From the IMG/VR virus record IMGVR_UViG_3300043400_000016, positions 1 through 55,589 of that record: a stretch of 55,589 nt of DNA, one strand, 5' to 3'. Under the pieces are notes generated by a model, which was not told the origin of the DNA, ran no database searches, and saw only the letters and a program-made list of their open reading frames with translations. The number at the start of each line of letters is the position of its first letter. The stretch's first letter is position 1. This DNA is from a virus. Its lineage: Duplodnaviria; Caudoviricetes. Position numbers and translations under genes: made by a program. This document shows positions 3,915 to 29,790 of this stretch, piece after piece.

Positions 3915-3997
3915 AATAACCTCTTGACGTATACTTGCCCTTGGTTAGACTCCACACATAACCAAGGGCTAAGCCCTACACTACAAGGAAAAGCATC

Positions 3998-5507: not shown

Positions 5508-5655
5508 GTAGTTGAGAATCATTCTCATCTAGTAAACAGTGTTTGCGCCGTAGGCTTGGGCATGGAAAGTCCCTCTTGACGTAGGCAAGCCGGGGTTGTA
5601 GACTCCACCCATAACAAGCCAGAAATGGCACAATCCCCACAAGGAAACCAGGATC

Positions 5656-14435: not shown

Positions 14436-14524
14436 GGCTATGGTTTATAGGACGCCCTAATAAGTCAAACACTGTTTGCGTGGTATTGTAGTTGGCCTAT
14501 TATTCGGGAACACTAGGAATTATC

Positions 14525-22200: not shown

Positions 22201-23706
22201 ATGGATAAAGAAATTCTAGCAGAAGCTAAGCAAGAGTACCAGGGCAGTATCACCCGTGGTATGCAGCTTTGCCAAACCAAGATGGATGAGAGCCTTGGCG
22301 ATGACGCTGTGCTCAAGGCCAAAGGCTTTGCCCAGTTCTTCTCGGGCAAGCACTCGCTTGAAGAGGGCGTAGACTTTAAGAATTGGAAGCCAGCAAATCA
22401 GAAGAAGGCGGCTATCAGCGCCATCATCATGGAGAACACCCAAGAGTGGCTGCGCTCAATGGATGAAACTACCCGCGCACTCAATGTTGGCGGTTTCGTA
22501 GATTATCTCGTCCCGATGATTCGTGCTGCGTTCACTAATAATCCCATTATGGATCTTGTCTCGGTTCAGCCGATGACCCGCTCTTTGGGCCGAATTTTCT
22601 TCCTAAACTACGTCGTTGGGCAGACCAAGGGCAACCGTAACAAAGGCGACCGTGTGTTTGATGCGGTTCGTGGATACACTGGCGGTTCGACGTACACTGG
22701 CGAACAGATCACTGGCGAAAATGAGGCTGCAACTGTTAGCAGCACTACGTACACGGGACAGCTTAGCTATCTCCCTGCCCGTCGCGGTACGGTTACTATT
22801 TCCATTGATAATGGCACCAATCTAGTTGCTAGTGATAGTGGTAATGGCACGTTTACCAAGGTGTCCGGTACCAATACGATTTCTAGCAGCAGCATTGACT
22901 ACAACACCGGTACATACACCATTACCGTAGGAACTACTCTAGCCGCCGGCCTAGCTGTTACTGCTAACTATTCCTACGACAGCGAAGTCAGCACCAATAT
23001 CCCGCAGATTGATTTCCAGATCACTTCGACCGCCGTGCAGGCTATTCGCCGCGCTCTGCGCGTTCGCTACAGCACTGACGGCGCGTTTGACTACAAGCAG
23101 GAATTTGGCGAAGATGCTGACACCACTCTGACTCAGGGAGTTGCAGACCTTATCCGCGCTGAAGTTGCTCGTGAAGTTGTCGGTGATCTGTGGAGCGTGG
23201 CTGGTGCCCCGGTCACTACATTCTCGCTCGGTGTTCCAAGTGGTGTCAGTAAGGCTGAACACTTTGCGGATATTAAGCATGAGCTGTCGATTGCCGACAA
23301 TGCAATCTATGAGGCTACTCAGCGTGCCCACGGTAGCTGGATGATTTGCGACATTGCTGCCTCGTCAGTTATCCGCACTATCCCGGCCCCTGTGTTTGTC
23401 GAAGCTCCTATTGATAACCGTACTCAAGGTGTTCAGTACATCGGTAAGCTAAATGGGCTTGATGTTTATGTTGATCCAAAACTAACTGAGGGTGATGCAG
23501 CTGCTTCGACATACGGTAACATTCTCCTAGGTCACAAGGGCACTGAGTTCTGGGATGCCGGCTACGTCTATGCGCCGTACCAGCCGCTCATTTCGACGGT
23601 TGCTGTGACTCTGGATGACTTCGTTACCCGTAAGGGTCTTGCGACCAGATACGCGAAAAAGATAATTTCACCATCGATGTTTAAGAAAATCGCTCTTGGT
23701 GCGTAA
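22201..23706 (+). CDS. major capsid protein, T4 gp23-like
   Basis: AIIMEN, DLVSVQPMT...GRIFFL, AGYVYAPYQPL, F..RKGLATRYA. Confidence 0.95.
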   Translation: MDKEILAEAKQEYQGSITRGMQLCQTKMDESLGDDAVLKAKGFAQFFSGKHSLEEGVDFKNWKPANQKKAAISAIIMENTQEWLRSMDETTRALNVGGFVDYLVPMIRAAFTNNPIMDLVSVQPMTRSLGRIFFLNYVVGQTKGNRNKGDRVFDAVRGYTGGSTYTGEQITGENEAATVSSTTYTGQLSYLPARRGTVTISIDNGTNLVASDSGNGTFTKVSGTNTISSSSIDYNTGTYTITVGTTLAAGLAVTANYSYDSEVSTNIPQIDFQITSTAVQAIRRALRVRYSTDGAFDYKQEFGEDADTTLTQGVADLIRAEVAREVVGDLWSVAGAPVTTFSLGVPSGVSKAEHFADIKHELSIADNAIYEATQRAHGSWMICDIAASSVIRTIPAPVFVEAPIDNRTQGVQYIGKLNGLDVYVDPKLTEGDAAASTYGNILLGHKGTEFWDAGYVYAPYQPLISTVAVTLDDFVTRKGLATRYAKKIISPSMFKKIALGA

Positions 23707-23730
23707 TTTAAGTTACGTCTGAGTCGATTA

Positions 23731-23768
23731 AAGAGTCCAAGGTGTAACAGCCTTGGACTTTTTGTTTG
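23731..23768 (+). terminator. intrinsic terminator after MCP, possibly bidirectional
   Basis: AGTCCAAGG-TGTAACAG-CCTTGGACT followed by TTTTGTTT; A-rich flank on the other side. Confidence 0.8.
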
Positions 23769-23930
23769 GTAATTTGTGTAAGCAAACTCGCAAAATACTT
23801 ATTACATAGAAACTAACGTCGAACTTAGGCTTAGTTGGTATTGGGATTGCCCTGCGTGCGCCCACAGGAATATCGCAGGAGGCGATCACCTGGTTCCGGA
23901 GGATGAGTAGCTCTGCAAACAGTGTTTGAA

Positions 23931-24017
23931 TGGCGGAAACCAGTGGAGTTGAGCCACATCCCCGAAGGGACACTCCCGTTAGCAACGGGGTGCATACACC
24001 GGTATGCTTTGATTTCC
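23931..24017 (-). tRNA. tRNA-Ser(GCT)
   Basis: GGAAATC acceptor, loop TT-GCT-AA, long variable arm, GCCA end. Confidence 0.85.
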
Positions 24018-24022
24018 AAAAA

Positions 24023-24109
24023 TGGCGGAATGCGGAGTGATTGAAACCCTGGCCTAAGCCTCACCGCTTTTCAAGAGCGGGGCCACCTCCGGTGGTGACT
24101 ACACATTCC
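24023..24109 (-). tRNA. tRNA-Ser(TGA)
   Basis: CCGCT-CT TGA AA-AGCGG, long variable arm, GCCA end. Confidence 0.85.
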
Positions 24110-24119
24110 ATAAAATAAA

Positions 24120-24203
24120 TGCCCCTGGTCAGACTCGAACTGACACGATCTTTCGACCGGCGAGTTTTAAGCTCGCTGCGTGCTGCCTTTTCGCCACAGG
24201 GGC
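24120..24203 (-). tRNA. tRNA-Leu(TAA), no encoded CCA
   Basis: GCGAG-CT TAA AA-CTCGC, long variable arm, GTTCGAGTC T-loop. Confidence 0.9.
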
Positions 24204-24211
24204 ATTGGGCT

Positions 24212-24288
24212 TGGTACCCGAGGCGGGAATCGAACCCGCAAAATCCGATTTTTGAAATCGGCACATATACCAGTTCTGTTACTCGGGC
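24212..24288 (-). tRNA. tRNA-Leu(CAA), short variable loop
   Basis: CCGAT-TT CAA AA-ATCGG, GTTCGATTC, ACCA end; 77 nt. Confidence 0.85.
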
Positions 24289-24291
24289 AAA

Positions 24292-24373
24292 TGGTACCGC
24301 TGGCAAGACTCTAACTTGCACTGTATCTTCATGCTCAATGAAGCGACTCTACCGGGGTTTGGTCTACAGCGGC
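24292..24373 (-). tRNA. tRNA-Leu(GAG), atypical
   Basis: CTTCA-TT GAG CA-TGAAG; T-loop TTAGAGT; C at position 37; ACCA end. Confidence 0.75.
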
Positions 24374-24378
24374 ATAGA

Positions 24379-24463
24379 TGGTGAGAGATTATGGAATCGA
24401 ACCATGCGCCGTGAGGCAACGGGTTTACAGCCCGCCGAGCAACCACTGCTCTATGAATCTCCC
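24379..24463 (-). tRNA. tRNA-Tyr(GTA)
   Basis: GCGGG-CT GTA AA-CCCGT, long variable arm, ACCA end. Confidence 0.9.
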
Positions 24464-24466
24464 AAG

Positions 24467-24549
24467 TGGTACCGGTGACTGGACTCGAACCAGCACGTCT
24501 TTCGACGCTTGCTCCTAAAGCAAGTGTGTCTGCATTTCACCACACCGGC
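24467..24549 (-). tRNA. tRNA-Leu(TAG)
   Basis: CTTGC-TT TAG GA-GCAAG, long variable arm, ACCA end. Confidence 0.9.
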
Positions 24550-24593
24550 ATATCAACTTGAGCTACGCTATCGTGTTGTAAAGAACTCGGCTT

Positions 24594-24630
24594 AAACGAG
24601 AAGACCCCAGGCTTGTAGGCCCAGGGTCTT
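24594..24630 (-). terminator. attenuator terminator of the leftward tRNA operon
   Basis: Minus strand AAGACCCTGGGC-CTACAA-GCCTGGGGTCTT-CTCGTTT; 5' arm alternatively pairs with leader segment 24663-24677. Confidence 0.75.
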
Positions 24631-24657
24631 TCGATGAACATCAGATTACTCCAGATG

Positions 24658-24732
24658 CTAAGTCATCGAAAACCCTGTCGCCCGATAGAGCGAGGATAAC
24701 GACAGACTGAGCAATGAGAGCTTGCGGTTCAT
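24658..24732 (-). CDS. leader peptide of the Leu/Ser/Tyr tRNA operon (24 aa, not in ORF track)
   Basis: MNRKLSLLSLSLSSLYRATGFSMT*; 12 consecutive codons are Leu, Ser or Tyr. Confidence 0.85.
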   Translation of the reverse strand: MNRKLSLLSLSLSSLYRATGFSMT

Positions 24733-24742
24733 GGGAGAGCGA

Positions 24743-24770
24743 ACCGTAGCAGAGACTCGGCAACCGTCAA
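24743..24770 (-). promoter_or_regulatory. promoter of the leftward leader/tRNA operon
   Basis: TTGACG, 16 bp, TG-C-TACGGT (extended -10), ATG 10 nt downstream (near-leaderless). Confidence 0.65.
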
Positions 24771-24838
24771 CAACTTTTCCTAATAAGTGCTAAACACTCG
24801 TATTTTACCGTACTTTTAAGCAACTTCCAAGATTGTTG

Positions 24839-24867
24839 TTGACTCCTGTTTCCCGATCCGCTAGACA
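24839..24867 (+). promoter_or_regulatory. promoter of the rightward leader/tRNA operon
   Basis: TTGACT 24839-24844, 17 bp, TAGACA 24862-24867; ATG at 24882. Confidence 0.55.
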
Positions 24868-24881
24868 TAGTCTCATCAGCC

Positions 24882-25010
24882 ATGCGCCTTATCCCAGCCA
24901 CCACAGCGATCCACGCCGGTACGACCCAAAAAGTCGAACCCAAGGGTTTTGCATGCCAGCGCGGATTTGGGATTTGGAATCAGATGGATGAAGTGGGGCT
25001 TAACGTGTAA
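24882..25010 (+). CDS. leader peptide of the rightward tRNA operon (42 aa, not in ORF track)
   Basis: MRLIPATTAIHAGTTQKVEPKGFACQRGFGIWNQMDEVGLNV*; 18 amino-acid types, lacks only Ser and Tyr. Confidence 0.85.
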   Translation: MRLIPATTAIHAGTTQKVEPKGFACQRGFGIWNQMDEVGLNV

Positions 25011-25037
25011 GAGAGGACCATCCTCAAACCACACGTT

Positions 25038-25071
25038 AAGCCCTGGGCCAAAAGCCTAGGGCTTTTTCGTT
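25038..25071 (+). terminator. attenuator terminator of the rightward tRNA operon
   Basis: AAGCCCTGGGC-CAAAA-GCCTAGGGCTT-TTTCGTT; 25031-25043 is the exact complement of leader segment 24996-25008. Confidence 0.85.
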
Positions 25072-25210
25072 ATGGGCTGGAGATCGTGCAGACCCCAAGG
25101 GGCTAACCCGAGGCTTAACAGCCAGACCCAAGACGGTTGAAATTGCTTGTGATCTTGAAAAATCTATATTGTGGTTTGCCGGGGTTACCAAAAAGTTGGG
25201 ACCCCAACAT

Positions 25211-25285
25211 GTGTCCCTAGCTCAGCGGAAGAGCGTCTTCGTAACAGGGAGAGGGTCCGGGGTTCAATTCCCTGGGGACACACCA
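25211..25285 (+). tRNA. tRNA-Val(AAC), A34 anticodon
   Basis: GTGTCCC/GGGACAC acceptor, TCTTC-GT AAC AG-GGAGA, ACCA end. Confidence 0.8.
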
Positions 25286-25288
25286 GAA

Positions 25289-25359
25289 GTCAGAGATAGG
25301 AGTTCAAATCTCCTGTTACAAGCGAAAGCCGGTTTCTAGTTCAACGGTAGAACACTGAC
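25289..25359 (+). ncRNA. circularly permuted tRNA-like element (T arm before D arm)
   Basis: GTCAG-AGAT-AGGAG TTCAAAT CTCCT-...GC GAAA GC...-TA GTTC AACGGTA GAAC A-CTGAC. Confidence 0.6.
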
Positions 25360-25365
25360 GTTTAT

Positions 25366-25440
25366 TGCAGGATAGAGAAGCGGCATCTCAGGAGTTTCAT
25401 ACGCTCTAAGTCGTGGGTTCGAGTCCCACTCCTGCAACCA
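25366..25440 (+). tRNA. tRNA-Met(CAT), initiator-like D stem
   Basis: TGCAGGA/TCCTGCA, GGAGT-TT CAT AC-GCTCT, A11-T24 pair, ACCA end. Confidence 0.85.
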
Positions 25441-25483
25441 ATACTTTTCTTGACAGCGGGTCTCATAACCAGATACTCTGAGT

Positions 25484-25888
25484 ATGCCTATAAAAGACCC
25501 GATTGCCCGTCGTGAAAATCATAAACGGTATATGGTGCAGTATCTCTCGATTCCAAAAAATTATGCTAAGCACCTAGCCCGAGTAGCCCGGAACAAGAAG
25601 AGATACAGAAAGATTATAGATGATGCTTTAGACATCTTCAGGGCTACCGGTTGCTTAAATTGCGAAGAAAAAGAGCCGTGTGTTTTAGTAGCACACCACT
25701 TAGACCCTGATGAAAAGGAGTTTTCCATAGCTAAGATGAAGATGAGAAATATGTATAATGGTATCGCTGCTGAGCTAAAAAAGTGCGTGTGCTTATGTCA
25801 TAACTGCCACTTCAAGTACCATGCTGGAGTTATTGATATCCCGGGATTGCCGCCGGTAGTTGATAGAAAAATAGTTATGCCGAGTTAG
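25484..25888 (+). CDS. HNH endonuclease (free-standing homing type)
   Basis: CLNC...AHHLDP.EKEFSI...ELKKCVCLCHNCH. Confidence 0.85.
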   Translation: MPIKDPIARRENHKRYMVQYLSIPKNYAKHLARVARNKKRYRKIIDDALDIFRATGCLNCEEKEPCVLVAHHLDPDEKEFSIAKMKMRNMYNGIAAELKKCVCLCHNCHFKYHAGVIDIPGLPPVVDRKIVMPS

Positions 25889-25943
25889 TACAAGTGAAGA
25901 ACTTTATTGTTGATTGCTGCGGTTTTATGATTTACTTAATGCC

Positions 25944-26435
25944 ATGCAGCCGACATATCGTGAAAGACGCGCCAAAGTATTAGAATACTTAGGGACCGAG
26001 TGTGCCCATTGCGGTAGCACTTCACGCCTTGAGATAGACCACATAGACCCAAAATTAAAGTCTTATGATGTAGGCGCTAGACTAAAGTGGGCAAATTGGA
26101 ATGATCTTGTCCTTGAGCTAGCGAAGTGTCAAGCTTTATGCCATGAATGTCACAAACAAAAATCAATAAAATATCATGGGCATTCGCCGGTTAAAGGAAC
26201 TCACGGAACAACTTCGAGTTATAAATATTGCAAATGCCCTTTATGCAGAAAAGCAAAGTCAGACTACAACGCGGAGTACAAGACAAGGAAAGGATTGCGC
26301 ACCGGGACTAAGCCACGCACCGGACTTGTGCATGGGACATGTAACGCATATCAGTATTACGGCTGCCGCTGTGATTTATGTAAAACGGCAAAACATGAAG
26401 CGTATAAAGCTAAGCGAAATGGTATGTCTGTGTAG
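25944..26435 (+). CDS. HNH endonuclease with two HGT..Y..CxCxxC Zn ribbons
   Basis: CAHC...LEIDHIDP...KCQALCHECH; ORF track start 25914 (TTG), ATG 25944 more likely; stop overlaps tRNA-Phe. Confidence 0.85.
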   Translation: MQPTYRERRAKVLEYLGTECAHCGSTSRLEIDHIDPKLKSYDVGARLKWANWNDLVLELAKCQALCHECHKQKSIKYHGHSPVKGTHGTTSSYKYCKCPLCRKAKSDYNAEYKTRKGLRTGTKPRTGLVHGTCNAYQYYGCRCDLCKTAKHEAYKAKRNGMSV

Positions 26436-26502
26436 CTCAGTTGGTAGTAGCGCTGGTTTGAAAAACCAGAGGCCGTAAGTTCGACTCTTACCACAGACAC
26501 CA
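26426..26502 (+). tRNA. tRNA-Phe(GAA)
   Basis: CTGGT-TT GAA AA-ACCAG, GTTCGACTC, ACCA end. Confidence 0.9.
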
Positions 26503-26573
26503 CCCGACTACGAATGCTGTGTTGACTACATTTAAGGAAAACCGTCAATGCAATTTTTGTCGTAGTCTTTTAT

Positions 26574-26647
26574 GGGCCGTTCCTCCATTGGTAAGAGGCG
26601 TGATTTTCAATCACATAAAGAGGGTTCGATTCCCTCACGGTCTACCA
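26574..26647 (+). tRNA. tRNA-Glu(TTC)
   Basis: GTGA-TT TTC AA-TCAC, GTTCGATTC, ACCA end. Confidence 0.85.
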
Positions 26648-26678
26648 CATTACAAGGCAAACAGTGTTTGCTCAACAT

Positions 26679-26750
26679 GCTCGTATCGTCCAATGGTAGT
26701 GACGACTGATTCTCAGTCAGTAGACCGGGGTCCGATTCCCCGTACGAGTA
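26679..26750 (+). tRNA. tRNA-Glu(CTC), no encoded CCA
   Basis: ACTGA-TT CTC AG-TCAGT; T-loop TCCGATT. Confidence 0.85.
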
Positions 26751-26790
26751 AATATATTGACGGCGGTACTTGGTAGATTAGAACCAGCAT

Positions 26791-27309
26791 ATGGTTATAG
26801 ACTACTCCAGAAAATCAGCGCTCCTTCTAGCCGAATCTATTGGTTACATCATTAAAGAAGGCAACGTTTATCATCCGAAGAAAGTTACACCCGTAAAATT
26901 ATACCCTGTTGATGGGTACCCGACTTTTTCTGTCCGCTCTCGGACTCGTGGGATAAAGGGACTGGTGGCTGTACACCGCCTTTTAGCATACAGGAAGTAT
27001 GGTGACGCGGTATTTGACAATAACATAGAAGTTAGGCATCTTGACGCTGACCGATCAAATTTTAGCTACGAAAACATTGTTATAGGAACAGCTTTACAAA
27101 ACTCTTTAGATAAACCGACTTCTCTCAGACGGGCAGTAGCCATAATAGCGTCGTCGCATAAAAGAGTCCTATCCAATACCGACGTGGCTAGTATTCTTGA
27201 AATGAGAAAAAATAATAAAACTTATAAACAGATTGGCGCTATTTATGGCATATCTAAATCAACACTATCGTATCTTTTTAATAAATCTTATTACGCAAAA
27301 AATTTATAG
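26791..27309 (+). CDS. HNH homing endonuclease with C-terminal HTH
   Basis: VHRLLAY...EVRHLDADRSNFSYENI...QN; TYKQIGAIYGISKSTLSY. Confidence 0.85.
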   Translation: MVIDYSRKSALLLAESIGYIIKEGNVYHPKKVTPVKLYPVDGYPTFSVRSRTRGIKGLVAVHRLLAYRKYGDAVFDNNIEVRHLDADRSNFSYENIVIGTALQNSLDKPTSLRRAVAIIASSHKRVLSNTDVASILEMRKNNKTYKQIGAIYGISKSTLSYLFNKSYYAKNL

Positions 27310-27322
27310 TACTAATTAAGCT

Positions 27323-27396
27323 GTTCCCAGAGTCAGGCGGTACGACGACGCACTGTCACTGTGTAAGATCGGGTTCAACTCCCGATGGGGACGCCA
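27323..27396 (+). tRNA. tRNA-Asp(GTC)
   Basis: ACGCA-CT GTC AC-TGTGT, GCCA end. Confidence 0.85.
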
Positions 27397-27414
27397 CTTT
27401 TTAAGATTATTACT

Positions 27415-27489
27415 CGGCGGGTTGTCCGGTAGACACCACGCGCCTGATAAGCGCGTTGGAGGGTGGTCCGACTCCACTCCCGCCGACCA
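27415..27489 (+). tRNA. tRNA-Ile(GAT)
   Basis: CGGCGGG/CCCGCCG, CGCGC-CT GAT AA-GCGCG, T-loop TCCGACT, ACCA end. Confidence 0.8.
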
Positions 27490-27498
27490 TTTCAGTGT

Positions 27499-27572
27499 TG
27501 GCGGATCATATAATGGTATTATGGCCGATTGTTACTCGGTTCATCTCCGTTCGAGTCGGAGTCTGCCAGCCA
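27499..27572 (+). tRNA. tRNA-Asn(GTT)
   Basis: GCCGA-TT GTT AC-TCGGT, GCCA end. Confidence 0.9.
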
Positions 27573-27666
27573 GATGGCGTCTATGACGCCCGTGTGTCTC
27601 ACGTTAAACGGTCATCGGGTATGCTCCGCCCATAAGGATGACAGGGAGGAAAGACTCTCACGTTTT

Positions 27667-27739
27667 GGGCGCTACTGTCATGGTGACGGTCGAGCTTTGC
27701 AAGCTTGCTGACGGGTCCGATTCCCCCGAGTGTCCACCA
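27667..27739 (+). tRNA. tRNA-Ala(TGC)
   Basis: G3:U70 pair (GGGCGCT/AGTGTCC), CGAGC-TT TGC AA-GCTTG, ACCA end. Confidence 0.85.
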
Positions 27740-27742
27740 TTT

Positions 27743-27814
27743 ACGAGACATGGCAGCGCACAGCGAGAACTCCAAATCCTTGCATGTCCGAATCAACACC
27801 GGGGTCTCGTGCCA
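27743..27814 (+). tRNA. tRNA-Trp(CCA), atypical D and T arms
   Basis: ACGAGAC/GTCTCGT acceptor, G73, loop CT CCA AA; shrunken D arm, T-loop ATCAACA. Confidence 0.65.
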
Positions 27815-27823
27815 TGCTGTTAT

Positions 27824-27899
27824 TGAGGAATGGCCTAACTGGTAAGGCAGCGCTCTCTGAAAGCGAAGATTAGTGGTTCGAGTCCACTTTCCTCAACCA
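27824..27899 (+). tRNA. tRNA-Gln(CTG)
   Basis: T1-A72, CGCT-CT CTG AA-AGCG, ACCA end. Confidence 0.9.
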
Positions 27900-27906
27900 T
27901 TCACAT

Positions 27907-27980
27907 TGACCCATTGCATAACGGTAGTGCCTCGGATTTTGGCTCCGATGGTCGGGATTCGATTTCCTGTGGGTCAACCA
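27907..27980 (+). tRNA. tRNA-Gln(TTG)
   Basis: T1-A72, TCGGA-TT TTG GC-TCCGA, ACCA end. Confidence 0.9.
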
Positions 27981-27986
27981 TTTCAT

Positions 27987-28062
27987 CTGAACGTAGCGTA
28001 ACTTGGCAGCGTACGAGTCTTGGGCACTCGCGGTGCGGGTTCAAATCCCGCCGTTCAGACCA
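27987..28062 (+). tRNA. tRNA-Pro(TGG)
   Basis: C1-G72, CGAGT-CT TGG GC-ACTCG, ACCA end. Confidence 0.9.
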
Positions 28063-28066
28063 TTTT

Positions 28067-28151
28067 GACAGAATAGCCTAGCGGCGAAGGCACTGGATTG
28101 CAAACCCAGCGGAGCAACCCCACATGAGTTCGAGTCTCATTTCTGTCTCCA
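28067..28151 (+). tRNA. tRNA-Cys(GCA) with long variable region
   Basis: Loop TT GCA AA, U73 (TCCA end), 14-nt variable region CGGAGCAACCCCAC. Confidence 0.85.
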
Positions 28152-28156
28152 GTTAT

Positions 28157-28220
28157 GTGTCTATAACTCAATCTGGTAGAGCGGTGCCGCAGGGCACATT
28201 GCGCGGCAGCTAGAGCGTCA
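28157..28220 (+). pseudogene. degenerate tRNA, probably a tRNA-His remnant
   Basis: 5' half GTGTCTA-TA-ACTCAATCTGGTAGAGC resembles tRNA-His; anticodon arm GTGCC-GCAG-GGCAC has a 4-nt loop; no T arm or CCA. Confidence 0.5.
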
Positions 28221-28240
28221 AAGATAAGAAAAGAAAATAA

Positions 28241-28315
28241 GCGTGTATAAGTCAACAGCTAGACCGGCAGTCTTCCAAACTGCAAACCCCGGGGCAGCAC
28301 CGGGTACACGCTCCA
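28241..28315 (+). tRNA. tRNA-Gly(TCC), atypical elbow
   Basis: GCG..CGC-TCCA identity, GCAGT-CT TCC AA-ACTGC; D-loop lacks GG, T-loop GGCAGCA. Confidence 0.8.
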
Positions 28316-28319
28316 TAAT

Positions 28320-28395
28320 GCTCCTGTAGGCTAATTGGAAAAACCGGTGGACTACGAATCCGTCATTCCACGTTCAAGTCGTGGCGGGAGCGCCA
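28320..28395 (+). tRNA. tRNA-Arg(ACG)
   Basis: GTGGA-CT ACG AA-TCCGT, GCCA end. Confidence 0.9.
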
Positions 28396-28398
28396 TAT

Positions 28399-28473
28399 GC
28401 CACCAAACCTTAGATAGCGAAGGACCGCACTTGTAATGCGGAAAGCGGGGTGCATGTCCTCGTGGTGGCTCCA
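28399..28473 (+). tRNA. tRNA-Thr(TGT), atypical elbow
   Basis: CCGCA-CT TGT AA-TGCGG; T-loop TGCATGT; TCCA end. Confidence 0.8.
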
Positions 28474-28478
28474 TTGAT

Positions 28479-28566
28479 GCTGACTTACCCAAGAGACCGA
28501 AGGGAACTCATTCGTAACGAGGCGAGAGAAATCTCCGCGTTGGTTTAAATCCAACAGTCAGCTCCA
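28479..28566 (+). tRNA. tRNA-Thr(CGT) with long variable arm
   Basis: GCTGACT/AGTCAGC, loop TT CGT AA, variable hairpin GAGA-GAAA-TCTC, TCCA end. Confidence 0.75.
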
Positions 28567-28569
28567 TAC

Positions 28570-28601
28570 GCACATCAGGCTTGCGCCCGAGATGTGCTCC
28601 A
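28570..28601 (+). ncRNA. acceptor-stem minihelix ending in UCCA
   Basis: GCACATC-AGGCTTGCGCCCGA-GATGTGC-T-CCA, spaced like a tRNA gene in the array. Confidence 0.55.
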
Positions 28602-28604
28602 AAA

Positions 28605-28678
28605 GGGTTGCGAGTATTCCGGCCATACATCCCGCTTTTAACGGGAGGAACCGTGTTCGATTCACGGGCGACCCACCA
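28605..28678 (+). tRNA. tRNA-Lys(TTT)
   Basis: TCCCG-CT TTT AA-CGGGA, ACCA end. Confidence 0.9.
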
Positions 28679-28679
28679 C

Positions 28680-28754
28680 GCTCTGCAAGCATACACGGAG
28701 ATGCATTGGTTTCTTAAACCAGGGAATTCGGTTCAAGTCCGAAGCGGAGCACCA
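28680..28754 (+). tRNA. tRNA-Lys(CTT)
   Basis: TTGGT-TT CTT AA-ACCAG, ACCA end. Confidence 0.9.
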
Positions 28755-28757
28755 CAT

Positions 28758-28831
28758 GCGAGATTATTTAAGCGGTAGAAAGCCTCTTTTACACTGAAGA
28801 AGTCGGGGTTCGATTCCCTCATCTCGCACCA
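28758..28831 (+). tRNA. tRNA-Val(TAC), weak anticodon stem
   Basis: GCGAGAT/ATCTCGC, loop TT TAC AC, ACCA end; two mismatches in anticodon stem. Confidence 0.75.
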
Positions 28832-28866
28832 CCACACCACCCGGCAAACCACAGAAAGATAAAATC

Positions 28867-29418
28867 ATGCCAGTCGGAAGTACAATAGTTCTCAACTGTG
28901 ACTACTCCTATCTTAGTATAAATGGATGGTATTCAGCCATCGGACTAATCCTCCGTGGTCGTGCTGCTCCACTGGCATCCTACGACTCCAAGATCCGCTC
29001 AGAGAAGTGGGAGATTCCTGCTCCCGCTGTTATCCAACTCAAGGAGATGGCTAATACTCGAAGGCGAAGGCAACCATTCACTTTACCCAGCCACAAGAAT
29101 GTGTGGGTGAGAGAGAAAGGACGCTGTGCCTACTGCGGAGTGAAAATGTCTCTGCGGGCAGCCACGAAGGAGCACGTACATCCTCGTGGTCTTGGCGGTC
29201 AGGATACTCTGCTCAACGTTGTGGCTGCTTGTGAGCCTTGCAACGGAAAGAAGGGTTGCAGGACTCCTGCTCAAGCAGGCATGAAGTTCCGTGAGGGCGT
29301 CGAGCTACGCCATCTGACTGATGAAGAGAAGTTGGAAGTCATCATGAAGACTTCTAAAAGCCACGAGCGTAATGCTTGGCTTAGCTTCTTGAAAAAGGAA
29401 GGACTGTCTTTATTCTGA
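28867..29418 (+). CDS. HNH endonuclease (McrA-like)
   Basis: IVLN.DY..L, NVWVREKGRCAYCG, TKEHVHPR..GG.DT..NVVAACEPCN.KKG.RTP. Confidence 0.9.
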   Translation: MPVGSTIVLNCDYSYLSINGWYSAIGLILRGRAAPLASYDSKIRSEKWEIPAPAVIQLKEMANTRRRRQPFTLPSHKNVWVREKGRCAYCGVKMSLRAATKEHVHPRGLGGQDTLLNVVAACEPCNGKKGCRTPAQAGMKFREGVELRHLTDEEKLEVIMKTSKSHERNAWLSFLKKEGLSLF

Positions 29419-29521
29419 CACTATGTCAGTGGGTTGCCAAGCGAGGCTGCCCGGTTATTAAGGCCGAATAAATTTGGGTTTTGTCACCCAGGCTAGATTA
29501 CCCTCTCGACTGACGAGACTT

Positions 29522-29558
29522 AAACACCCAGACTGATACTCTGGGTGTTTTCGTTATT
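29522..29558 (+). terminator. intrinsic terminator
   Basis: AAACACCCAGA-CTGATAC-TCTGGGTGTTT-TCGTTATT. Confidence 0.7.
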
Positions 29559-29759
29559 ATGAGAGGGTGGTGAAACGTGGTACGGTAGTGCGGTAGTGCG
29601 GCTGCACTCTATGAGTGCCCTACGGCCAATTGCCCAAGTGGGTGCGCTAGTATACGCGGGAACTAGACTCTCCGTTAGACACTGCCAACCAACCGCTAGC
29701 GATTGGCGCTGAGACAGTTGGCTTTCGTAACTGCGGTCATTATGCCCGAGCAACAGTTC

Positions 29760-29790
29760 ACCCTGGGAAACCCCAGGGTCTTTTGTTTTC
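29760..29790 (+). terminator. intrinsic terminator closing the tRNA/ncRNA region
   Basis: ACCCTGGG-AAAC-CCCAGGGT followed by CTTTTGTTTT. Confidence 0.8.

Follow-up and report, generated by a model that had tools for sequence, protein, structure and literature searches.

The anatomy of the leader-peptide attenuators of enterobacteria is textbook knowledge. The pheM leader of pheST is an attenuator of this type which governs an aminoacyl-tRNA synthetase and senses charged tRNA-Phe only, and the T-boxes are leader RNAs in which a codon-like specifier reads the status of tRNA and either a terminator or an antiterminator is formed. Here, we analyzed the spacer between two divergent tRNA operons of a phage, in the IMG/VR virus record IMGVR_UViG_3300043400_000016 (55,589 bases, estimated completeness 38%; this whole stretch is called the window). 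On each side of the spacer, a short leader frame is followed by an antiterminator helix that starts in its last codons and by a terminator-like hairpin, and the codons of each leader mirror the tRNAs of the operon behind it. We give an even chance to the reading that the spacer consists of two ribosome-mediated leader-peptide attenuators which gate the tRNA operons and feed back on decoding capacity.

Among the systems described, translation of pheL controls the attenuation of pheA (excerpts of PMC3082878), and the attenuator with an upstream open reading frame (uORF) of whiB7 is strongly induced by a tRNA-cleaving VapC toxin (excerpts of PMC10287673). The purpose of the tRNA banks of phages is an old question that is active again, and recent papers, in their excerpts, argue for the replacement of tRNAs destroyed by defence nucleases. 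Host tRNAs that have been cleaved by anticodon nucleases, by retron effectors or by PARIS AriB can be substituted by those of a phage (excerpts of PMC10264068, PMC11555353 and PMC12409363), which gives a reason to regulate such banks. A literature search, with supplementary files outside its scope, found no case of tRNA genes controlled by a leader peptide, be it in a phage or in a bacterium, and nothing on how phage tRNA banks are regulated; in the text of PMC10264068, the stem attenuat- and the words leader, terminator and promoter do not occur. A preliminary description of this DNA, made from the letters alone, had known of no described codon-matched attenuator of tRNA genes, and none appeared in the literature found.

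Codons of the leaders and tRNAs of the operons

The tRNA genes were called with ARAGORN at default settings (20 tRNAs) and at relaxed settings (32 calls), and with Rfam (20 tRNA-clan matches in 23600-29600). Six of the 32 relaxed calls overlapped stronger calls, mostly on the opposite strand, and were discarded. The left operon (23931-24549, minus strand; both ARAGORN settings and Rfam) contains seven tRNAs, which are in the order of transcription Leu tag, Tyr gta, Leu gag, Leu caa, Leu taa, Ser tga and Ser gct. The default search yielded four of them (Leu taa, Leu caa, Tyr gta and Leu tag) and the relaxed search added Ser gct (23931-24016), Ser tga (24023-24109) and Leu gag (24292-24373). The restriction of this operon to Leu, Ser and Tyr tRNAs, already pointed out in the preliminary description, is therefore borne out for 7/7 genes by ARAGORN. 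In bacteria, the tRNAs with a long variable arm are those for Leu, Ser and Tyr. The tRNA genes are thus sorted by structural class, all seven long-variable-arm tRNAs being in one operon on the strand opposite to the remaining tRNAs. The right operon (25211-28831, plus strand; ARAGORN and Rfam) contains 20 tRNAs for 15 amino acids, with three HNH genes inside. Nineteen of these tRNAs were called by ARAGORN, and the last one is an Rfam tRNA match at 28241-28312 whose anticodon was read manually as Gly tcc. The earlier count of 16 other amino acids served by this operon has to be corrected to 15. A Trp-like tRNA at about 27743-27815, spotted by eye, had no support from Rfam or another tool and was rejected.

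The left leader frame (24732..24658, minus strand, from the list of open reading frames) has 24 codons followed by TAG and reads MNRKLSLLSLSLSSLYRATGFSMT. It contains the uninterrupted run of 12 Leu, Ser and Tyr codons (CTC TCA TTG CTC AGT CTG TCG TTA TCC TCG CTC TAT; 24685-24720, minus strand) that had been noticed before. This is the longest Leu/Ser/Tyr run of the window over the six frames, where 15 runs of at least 6 occur and the second longest has 8 codons. Dinucleotide shuffles reached a run of 12 in 0/20000 cases for the frame, 0/20000 for the 201-nucleotide leader and 2/20000 for the 36-nucleotide run alone, so that local pyrimidine richness is not the cause of the run. Such a run is what the idea of attenuation directly predicts. 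The left peptide has the appearance of a charged N-terminus followed by a hydrophobic stretch. A homologue search with an out-of-frame open reading frame that crosses the left leader was empty.

The right leader frame (24882..25010, plus strand, from the list of open reading frames and with a homologue, P0121) has 42 codons followed by TAA and reads MRLIPATTAIHAGTTQKVEPKGFACQRGFGIWNQMDEVGLNV. As the preliminary description had it, every amino acid except Ser and Tyr is present, that is 18 kinds in 42 residues. None of 6771 segments of 42 residues taken from 12 large genes combines at least 18 kinds with the lack of Ser and Tyr, and among 120 background frames of 38-46 amino acids a single one does, presumably the leader itself.

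Regulatory codons, as leader-peptide attenuators carry them, were found in both leaders when contacts between codons and anticodons were scored by simple wobble rules. The left frame touches 7/7 left anticodons, which was also the case for 51/9872 gene segments of 24 codons and for 335/41995 segments over the six frames. The right frame touches 19/20 right anticodons and 1/7 left anticodons. Of the gene segments of 42 codons, 38/9332 touch 19 right anticodons; the combination of 19 right anticodons with at most one left anticodon was observed in 0/9332 gene segments and in 10/25766 six-frame segments.

The attenuators could also be real and read the general translation status or the amino-acid supply (starvation, infection stage or ribosome-targeting stress) instead of the supply of tRNA; the tRNA operons would then just belong to those phage genes whose expression is raised under slow translation. 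The breadth of the right frame fits such a gauge, since its 18 amino acids include Leu, His and Trp, for which no tRNA was detected in the right operon, and the excerpts of PMC10287673 describe the whiB7 uORF attenuator as a general sensor of ribosome stalling. However, the left run is limited to the three amino acids of its own operon and touches 7/7 anticodons, and the right frame avoids Ser and Tyr, a partition that a general gauge would not need. The output would moreover be mismatched to the input, because added tRNA does not relieve amino-acid starvation. We consider this explanation distinctly unlikely.

Alternative hairpins, predicted switching and a relative

For attenuators that read tRNA supply, the hairpins behind the leader frames are the second line of evidence. 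An intrinsic terminator was found on both sides, the left one with a weak U tract. The right terminator (25038-25072, plus strand) ranks top in the terminator scan and is formed by an 11-bp stem with seven G-C pairs (25038-25064), a loop of five nucleotides and the tail TTTTTCGTT. The left terminator-like hairpin (24589-24630, minus strand; inverted repeat and folds) has a stem of 12 bp (24630..24601, arms 24601-24612 and 24619-24630) with an energy of -20.6 kcal/mol and the tail CTCGTTTAAGCC. The antiterminators overlapping the final leader codons, which had been proposed for both sides, could be located as defined helices. On the left (24623-24676, minus strand), nascent-chain and masked folds gave 14 pairs and one bulge (-23.7 kcal/mol) between a 5′ arm at 24676..24663, made of the last leader codons, and a 3′ arm at 24637..24623, which shares 8 nucleotides with the 5′ arm of the terminator. 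On the right (24996-25043, plus strand), the inverted repeat and the folds gave 13 perfect pairs (24996-25008/25031-25043; -28.5 kcal/mol). The 5′ arm of this helix spans the last codons and reaches into the stop codon by one base, and its 3′ arm shares 6 nucleotides with the 5′ arm of the terminator. Both antiterminators, which overlap the terminators by 6 and 8 nucleotides, are removed in the folds when a ribosome footprint is placed on the stop codon.

The two devices share their geometry. The distance from stop codon to terminator is 27 nucleotides in both, and the 5′ arm of the antiterminator ends at the stop codon or 2 nucleotides before it. The two terminators can be aligned closely, which agrees with the mutual likeness described before; the antiterminator arms are unlike in sequence, yet paired in both devices. 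Judged from the sequences, like terminators together with differing but pairing arms are the pattern expected of a conserved structure, whether it arose by duplication or by independent origin. Furthermore, both leaders fold more strongly than their shuffles (z -2.9 and -3.1).

The effect of translation was modeled by masking a footprint of 30 bases while the A site was moved along the leader. In the unmasked left leader, the codon run pairs with the 5′ arm of the antiterminator and the terminator is extended to 15 pairs. With the A site anywhere from 24720 to 24687, the 5′ arm is freed and pairs with its 3′ partner. With the footprint at 24681, at 24672 or at the stop codon, the antiterminator is lost. 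In these models, the left leader reproduces the classical 1:2, 2:3 and 3:4 logic. In the right leader, the full antiterminator is present in a nascent chain that reaches 25045 and is gone once the stop codon is masked.

Consensus-like promoter hexamers occur on both sides, as expected for the back-to-back promoters of the preliminary description, with the plus-strand site below the threshold of the promoter scan. On the minus strand, the candidate TTGGAA-17-TAAAAT (24830..24802) passes the scan and the candidate TTGACG-16-TACGGT (24770..24743) ends 10 nucleotides before the left ATG; both are consensus matches only. On the plus strand, a pattern search gave the candidate TTGACT-17-TAGACA (24839-24867), ending 14 nucleotides before the right ATG, which fails the scan. 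The motif TTGAC-N17-19-TAGAC occurs three times in the window for 0.31 expected, and 0/100 shuffles reach three; possibly it represents a class of promoters used by this phage. Its copies are at 3924-3950, 5576-5603 and 24839-24866, the last one being the candidate promoter of the right leader. On the left, the 51 nucleotides from the terminator to the first tRNA hold no convincing promoter, so transcription of the left operon has to pass through the hairpin.

According to the proposed mechanism, RNA polymerase would initiate at the back-to-back promoters and a ribosome would translate the short frame. Under fast decoding, this ribosome would reach the stop codon and cover the 5′ arm of the antiterminator, so that the terminator folds and transcription stops before the tRNAs. 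If an aminoacyl-tRNA is scarce, the ribosome would stall earlier, and the antiterminator would fold first and seize the base of the terminator stem, which allows read-through into the tRNA genes. The left frame would probe Leu, Ser and Tyr codons only, with at least one codon for each of the seven tRNAs, and the right frame would sample 18 amino acids and touch 19/20 right tRNAs. The tRNAs produced would then speed up the same codons, giving each device a negative feedback loop on decoding capacity. The trigger could be the loss of host tRNA through host shut-off or anticodon nucleases, or any other shortage; by analogy with the phage-tRNA literature and with the toxin induction of whiB7, depletion of host tRNA by anticodon nucleases is plausible. 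That the two devices form a closed-loop controller of the tRNA supply of the phage, with leader codon sets partitioned like the tRNA banks and transcription of a bank only on stalls for the tRNAs it encodes, is somewhat short of an even chance in our judgement.

Sequences of a relative were compared with the two devices. Of the runs that contain window sequence, X1 and X2 are labelled freshwater metagenome and are likely the source sample, hence not independent; X3, labelled metagenome only and from a separate study, was the sole comparison run. No RNA run was listed among them. The only protein homologue found for the right leader, P0121, has 42 residues with 90% identity (changes A6T, I10M, H11N and Q26H), and the X3 contigs bear the same variant. 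X3 record 18 spans 24882-25207 without a gap and with 14 differences. Seven of them are listed with their position: 24912 (H11N), 24947, 24953 and 24962 (synonymous third positions), 24959 (Q26H, third position), 25058 and 25094. The other seven fall in the terminal 30 bases on one side or the other of the aligned piece. Placing these seven in codons 1-10, mostly as synonymous changes, was considered and dropped, as they may equally fall in 25178-25207.

Taken together, record 18 and P0121 give seven known changes in the right frame, five at third, two at first and none at second positions (binomial p 0.045); three of the seven are synonymous and the frame keeps its length. The frame has a single His codon in both phages, at codon 11 in the window and at codon 26 in the relative. 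Among the listed changes, none falls in 24963-25057, a stretch with the two arms of the antiterminator and the 5′ arm of the terminator. At 25058, the change A>G replaces U-A by U.G in the terminator stem and keeps the pairing, and 25094 is the only listed change in the spacer 25073-25207. The block 24963-25207 (245 bases) thus has 2 listed changes, versus 27 differences and 4 gaps over 226 bases (about 12%) in the left tRNA genes, and this near-identity may reflect constraint. X3 record 17 covers 24658-24889 with 22 substitutions and four gaps. All four gaps are located at 24782-24820 between the promoters, so that the left frame has no indel in the relative. The homology of the relative stops abruptly at 25207, four bases 5′ of tRNA-Val, which means that the first tRNA differs and the leader stays; the letters of the relative past this point resemble the stretch of the window that precedes tRNA-Met. 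The longest X3 record matching the stretch has 146,919 bases, near the genome size that the 38% completeness of the window would imply, and is maybe the complete genome of a related phage. This comparative evidence is thin, yet in line with the attenuator reading.

Competing explanations and the genomic setting

A number of observations speak against two tRNA-sensing attenuators. At the level of the codons, hitting all seven anticodons is unremarkable once 12 Leu, Ser and Tyr codons are given (p 0.17), and the amino-acid set of the right frame was spotted post hoc and merits some discount. The right frame also has two Leu, one His and one Trp codons whose cognate tRNAs were not detected in the right operon, and Glu ctc is the one right anticodon that this frame does not touch. 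The codons for Val tac are confined to the last five positions of the leader, so that a ribosome stalled on them would itself mask the antiterminator arm. At the level of the folds, the right leader has no hairpin of the 1:2 type and would, if untranslated, default to read-through. In addition, the minimum-energy folds retain both terminator stems, merely shortened, in every masked state, so that the switch would have to be kinetic. Kinetic switching is the case in classical attenuators such as trp. The preliminary description had proposed folding with and without a footprint; the release of the antiterminator by a stalled ribosome, as it had supposed, was reproduced in the folds of the left leader. 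Its statements on the sequence hold at the positions given, apart from two small corrections (the number of amino acids and the promoters, which are consensus-like only) and the weak U tract on the left, and the features exceed by far what chance would give. Its interpretation is supported in part, by the architecture, the codon match and the in silico evidence (geometry, masked folds, statistics and relative); against its details stand the equilibrium folds, the 15 amino acids of the right operon in place of 16, the Leu, His and Trp codons, and the cases of Glu ctc and Val tac.

The translation and termination signals are mixed as well. The tail of the left terminator is poor in U and fails the rule of the terminator scan, which does not list the hairpin; the proposal of an intrinsic terminator on each side is thus upheld on the right, and on the left for the stem but not for the scan. 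No Shine-Dalgarno match was found at either leader ATG. This is weak evidence because most genes of this phage likewise have no clear one. The frames that could be translated are ATG frames of 24 and 42 codons on the correct strands, of which the right one is called as a gene. We conjecture that the promoters nearest to the ATGs would yield almost leaderless messages, which would fit the absence of a Shine-Dalgarno sequence.

These weak signals, together with the terminators that persist in the equilibrium folds, fit an explanation without attenuation, in which the spacer holds chance, untranslated frames beside ordinary hairpins, active in the processing or stability of tRNA precursors or as insulating or antisense terminators. 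Similar terminators near the operons point in the same direction, and the left hairpin could act on the plus strand too. Two strong terminators are located past the right operon (29522-29550 and 29760-29779, plus strand; terminator scan), and strong terminators are scarce in the window and concentrated near the tRNA operons. TTTTCGTT sites occur at the two post-operon terminators, whose stem and tail resemble both leader terminators. One of them has a TTTTCGTTAT tail as in the right leader terminator, and the other one has a ACCCTGGG/CCCAGGGT stem resembling the left leader terminator.

A role of the left hairpin as terminator of the neighbouring capsid gene was rejected. It would be superfluous, for the capsid gene has its own terminator, a strong hairpin at 23730-23768 with T runs at both sides, recognized in sequence and fold. 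It probably serves as the stop for two transcripts, that of the capsid gene on the plus strand and that of the left tRNA operon on the minus strand. Chance frames and ordinary hairpins would also leave the codon statistics of both leaders without a cause, as well as the equal spacing of 27 nucleotides and the placement of the arms relative to the stops despite differing helix sequences, and the third-position bias and intact frame in the relative. We therefore regard the absence of attenuation as unlikely.

A promoter-like sequence TTGCTT-16-TATATT, read from the sequence at 25143-25170 (plus strand) between the right terminator and the first tRNA, could alone drive the right operon. It gives room for another explanation, in which each frame is a separate small gene, for a micropeptide or a short transcript, with its own terminator, and the tRNA operons use downstream promoters. 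The 143 nucleotides past the right terminator, nearly unchanged in the relative, suggest a further function there, and the charged N-terminus and hydrophobic stretch that the left peptide seems to have could be those of a small protein. The stretch preceding the first right tRNA (25073-25210, plus strand) reads as a structured spacer. The left operon would nevertheless need a promoter in the 51 nucleotides past the left terminator, where no convincing one was seen. The peptides of 24 and 42 residues have no homologues except that of one close relative, and the mirroring of the tRNA sets by the peptide composition would be unexplained. Small independent genes are in our view very unlikely.

The comparison with the relative, too, can be read in more than one way for the two attenuators. 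The near-identity of 24963-25207 may equally result from recent exchange or recombination, which the nearby homing endonuclease genes make plausible. The X3 coverage omits 24540-24633 (most of the left terminator), and no listed piece covers 24634-24657 (rest of the left switch), so that the left terminator and antiterminator of the relative are uncovered, which speaks neither for nor against the switch, and the substitutions of record 17 are unplaced within 24658-24889.

To judge from its gp23-type capsid, prohead protease, tail sheath and baseplate genes, the source phage is an uncultured myovirus. The tRNA region sits within the structural gene block, immediately after the gene of the gp23-type major capsid protein (22201-23706, PF07068). 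The nearest capsid of a cultured phage has 33% identity; close relatives by capsid protein are P0002 (85%) and P0003 (77%). The capsid protein searched singly against viral_contigs gave no match. An alignment of 15 capsid sequences gave 2 loci in viral_contigs, 24 in metagenome_contigs and 5 in genome_contigs, the best of them with 59% identity on a 1.9-kb contig. ARAGORN, applied to 15 of the 26 distant capsid loci of viral_contigs and metagenome_contigs, found no tRNA, and a tRNA search over whole records of two distant relatives (a complete genome of 150 kb and a fragment of 41 kb) gave 0 matches. The tRNA region is thus young, because the distant capsid relatives have no tRNA arrays, which is a further point on the side of chance frames and ordinary hairpins.

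Searches for the spacer itself in other genomes were mostly negative. Cultured phages compared with 23700-29000 gave short tRNA matches only, with none to the spacer or to the right leader peptide, and the right-leader alignment found no homologue in viral_contigs. DNA patterns for the tRNA-Leu stretch and for the terminator plus tail had 0 matches each in viral_contigs; the terminator stem alone occurs there at 78 loci, none with a tRNA and only two with hairpin-sized similarity. Aeromonas phage TSW001 has two tRNA clusters; no comparable frame was seen by eye upstream of either, which says little as this is a single unrelated phage.

Four HNH endonuclease genes accompany the right operon, three within it (25484-25888, 25914-26435 and 26791-27309) and one just beyond its end (28867-29418). 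This interleaving suggests homing-driven swapping of array segments among related phages. Several features of the right array are unusual. tRNA-Val was called with the anticodon AAC (25211-25285 and 28320-28395), beside the usual tRNA-Arg ACG; a tRNA-Val with A34 is unusual in bacteria and requires deamination to read more than one codon. The tRNA at 28241-28312, missed by ARAGORN, has a non-standard T loop, and tRNA-Cys (28067-28151) is 85 nucleotides long. Partial tRNA features (T-arm-like, D-arm-like and a CCA end) that the tools do not call are present in the gaps 25286-25365, 27743-27815 and 28152-28240 of the right array. A palindromic 13-mer CAAACA(S)TGTTTG has 21 sites in the window with at most one mismatch, compared with 0.04 expected; examples are at 14466, 18529, 20641, 23916, 26658, 29795, 31017, 42100 and 50095. 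Most copies are immediately 5′ of plus-strand genes, one is past the left tRNA operon and another lies between two tRNA-Glu genes. This candidate element is probably bound by a regulator of the phage or belongs to a phage promoter.

Comparison with described leaders

If the two attenuators operate as proposed, phages gauge decoding capacity codon by codon and respond with the matching tRNAs, and textbook attenuation acquires a new class of target. They would be the first leader-peptide attenuation known over tRNA genes and the first multi-amino-acid leader arranged as a register of the anticodons of its operon. Short frames 5′ of tRNA arrays would then be a signature that can be searched in metagenomes, and the device would provide a compact, portable sensor of tRNA availability for the laboratory.

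The enterobacterial leaders (trpL, hisL, leuL, thrL, ilvL and pheL) have in common with the phage leaders a short frame with a run of regulatory codons, an antiterminator that is occluded by the ribosome at the stop codon, and a terminator that shares few bases with the antiterminator. Their pairing of the 1:2 type, between codon run and antiterminator arm, is shared by the left device only. Unlike them, the phage devices have tRNAs as targets instead of biosynthetic enzymes and are carried by a phage; one leader mixes three amino acids according to a tRNA set, and the other one samples 18. There is no similarity to these leaders in sequence or by Rfam model (E up to 10): the leader families for His, Leu, Thr, Trp and others had no match at E<=1 over 23600-29600 and at E<=10 over 24550-25370. 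The T-box models likewise had no match in 23600-29600 or 24550-25370. T-boxes bind uncharged tRNA directly, free of the ribosome and through a conserved fold, whereas here the codons lie inside frames that start with ATG.

The closest in output is pheM of pheST, where a component of translation that serves the tested codons is produced, as it would be here; it is the synthetase for one amino acid in pheST and a bank of tRNA genes in the phage. The whiB7/wblC attenuators, as far as described in the excerpts, have a longer uORF along which slowed translation anywhere lifts termination, and in this they resemble the right leader with its 42 codons. The induction of whiB7 by VapC resembles, as an analogy, the idea of such a device reading tRNA cleavage. 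Their output is an actinobacterial transcription factor for antibiotic resistance, with no match of codons to genes and no homology with the phage leaders. From these parallels we infer that the devices would work in the manner of the leaders of trp, his, leu and phe and of pheM, and the right leader also like the whiB7 uORF. The type of mechanism is itself known; what is new here is the tRNA-gene target and the register-like codon sets, which are absent from the papers found.

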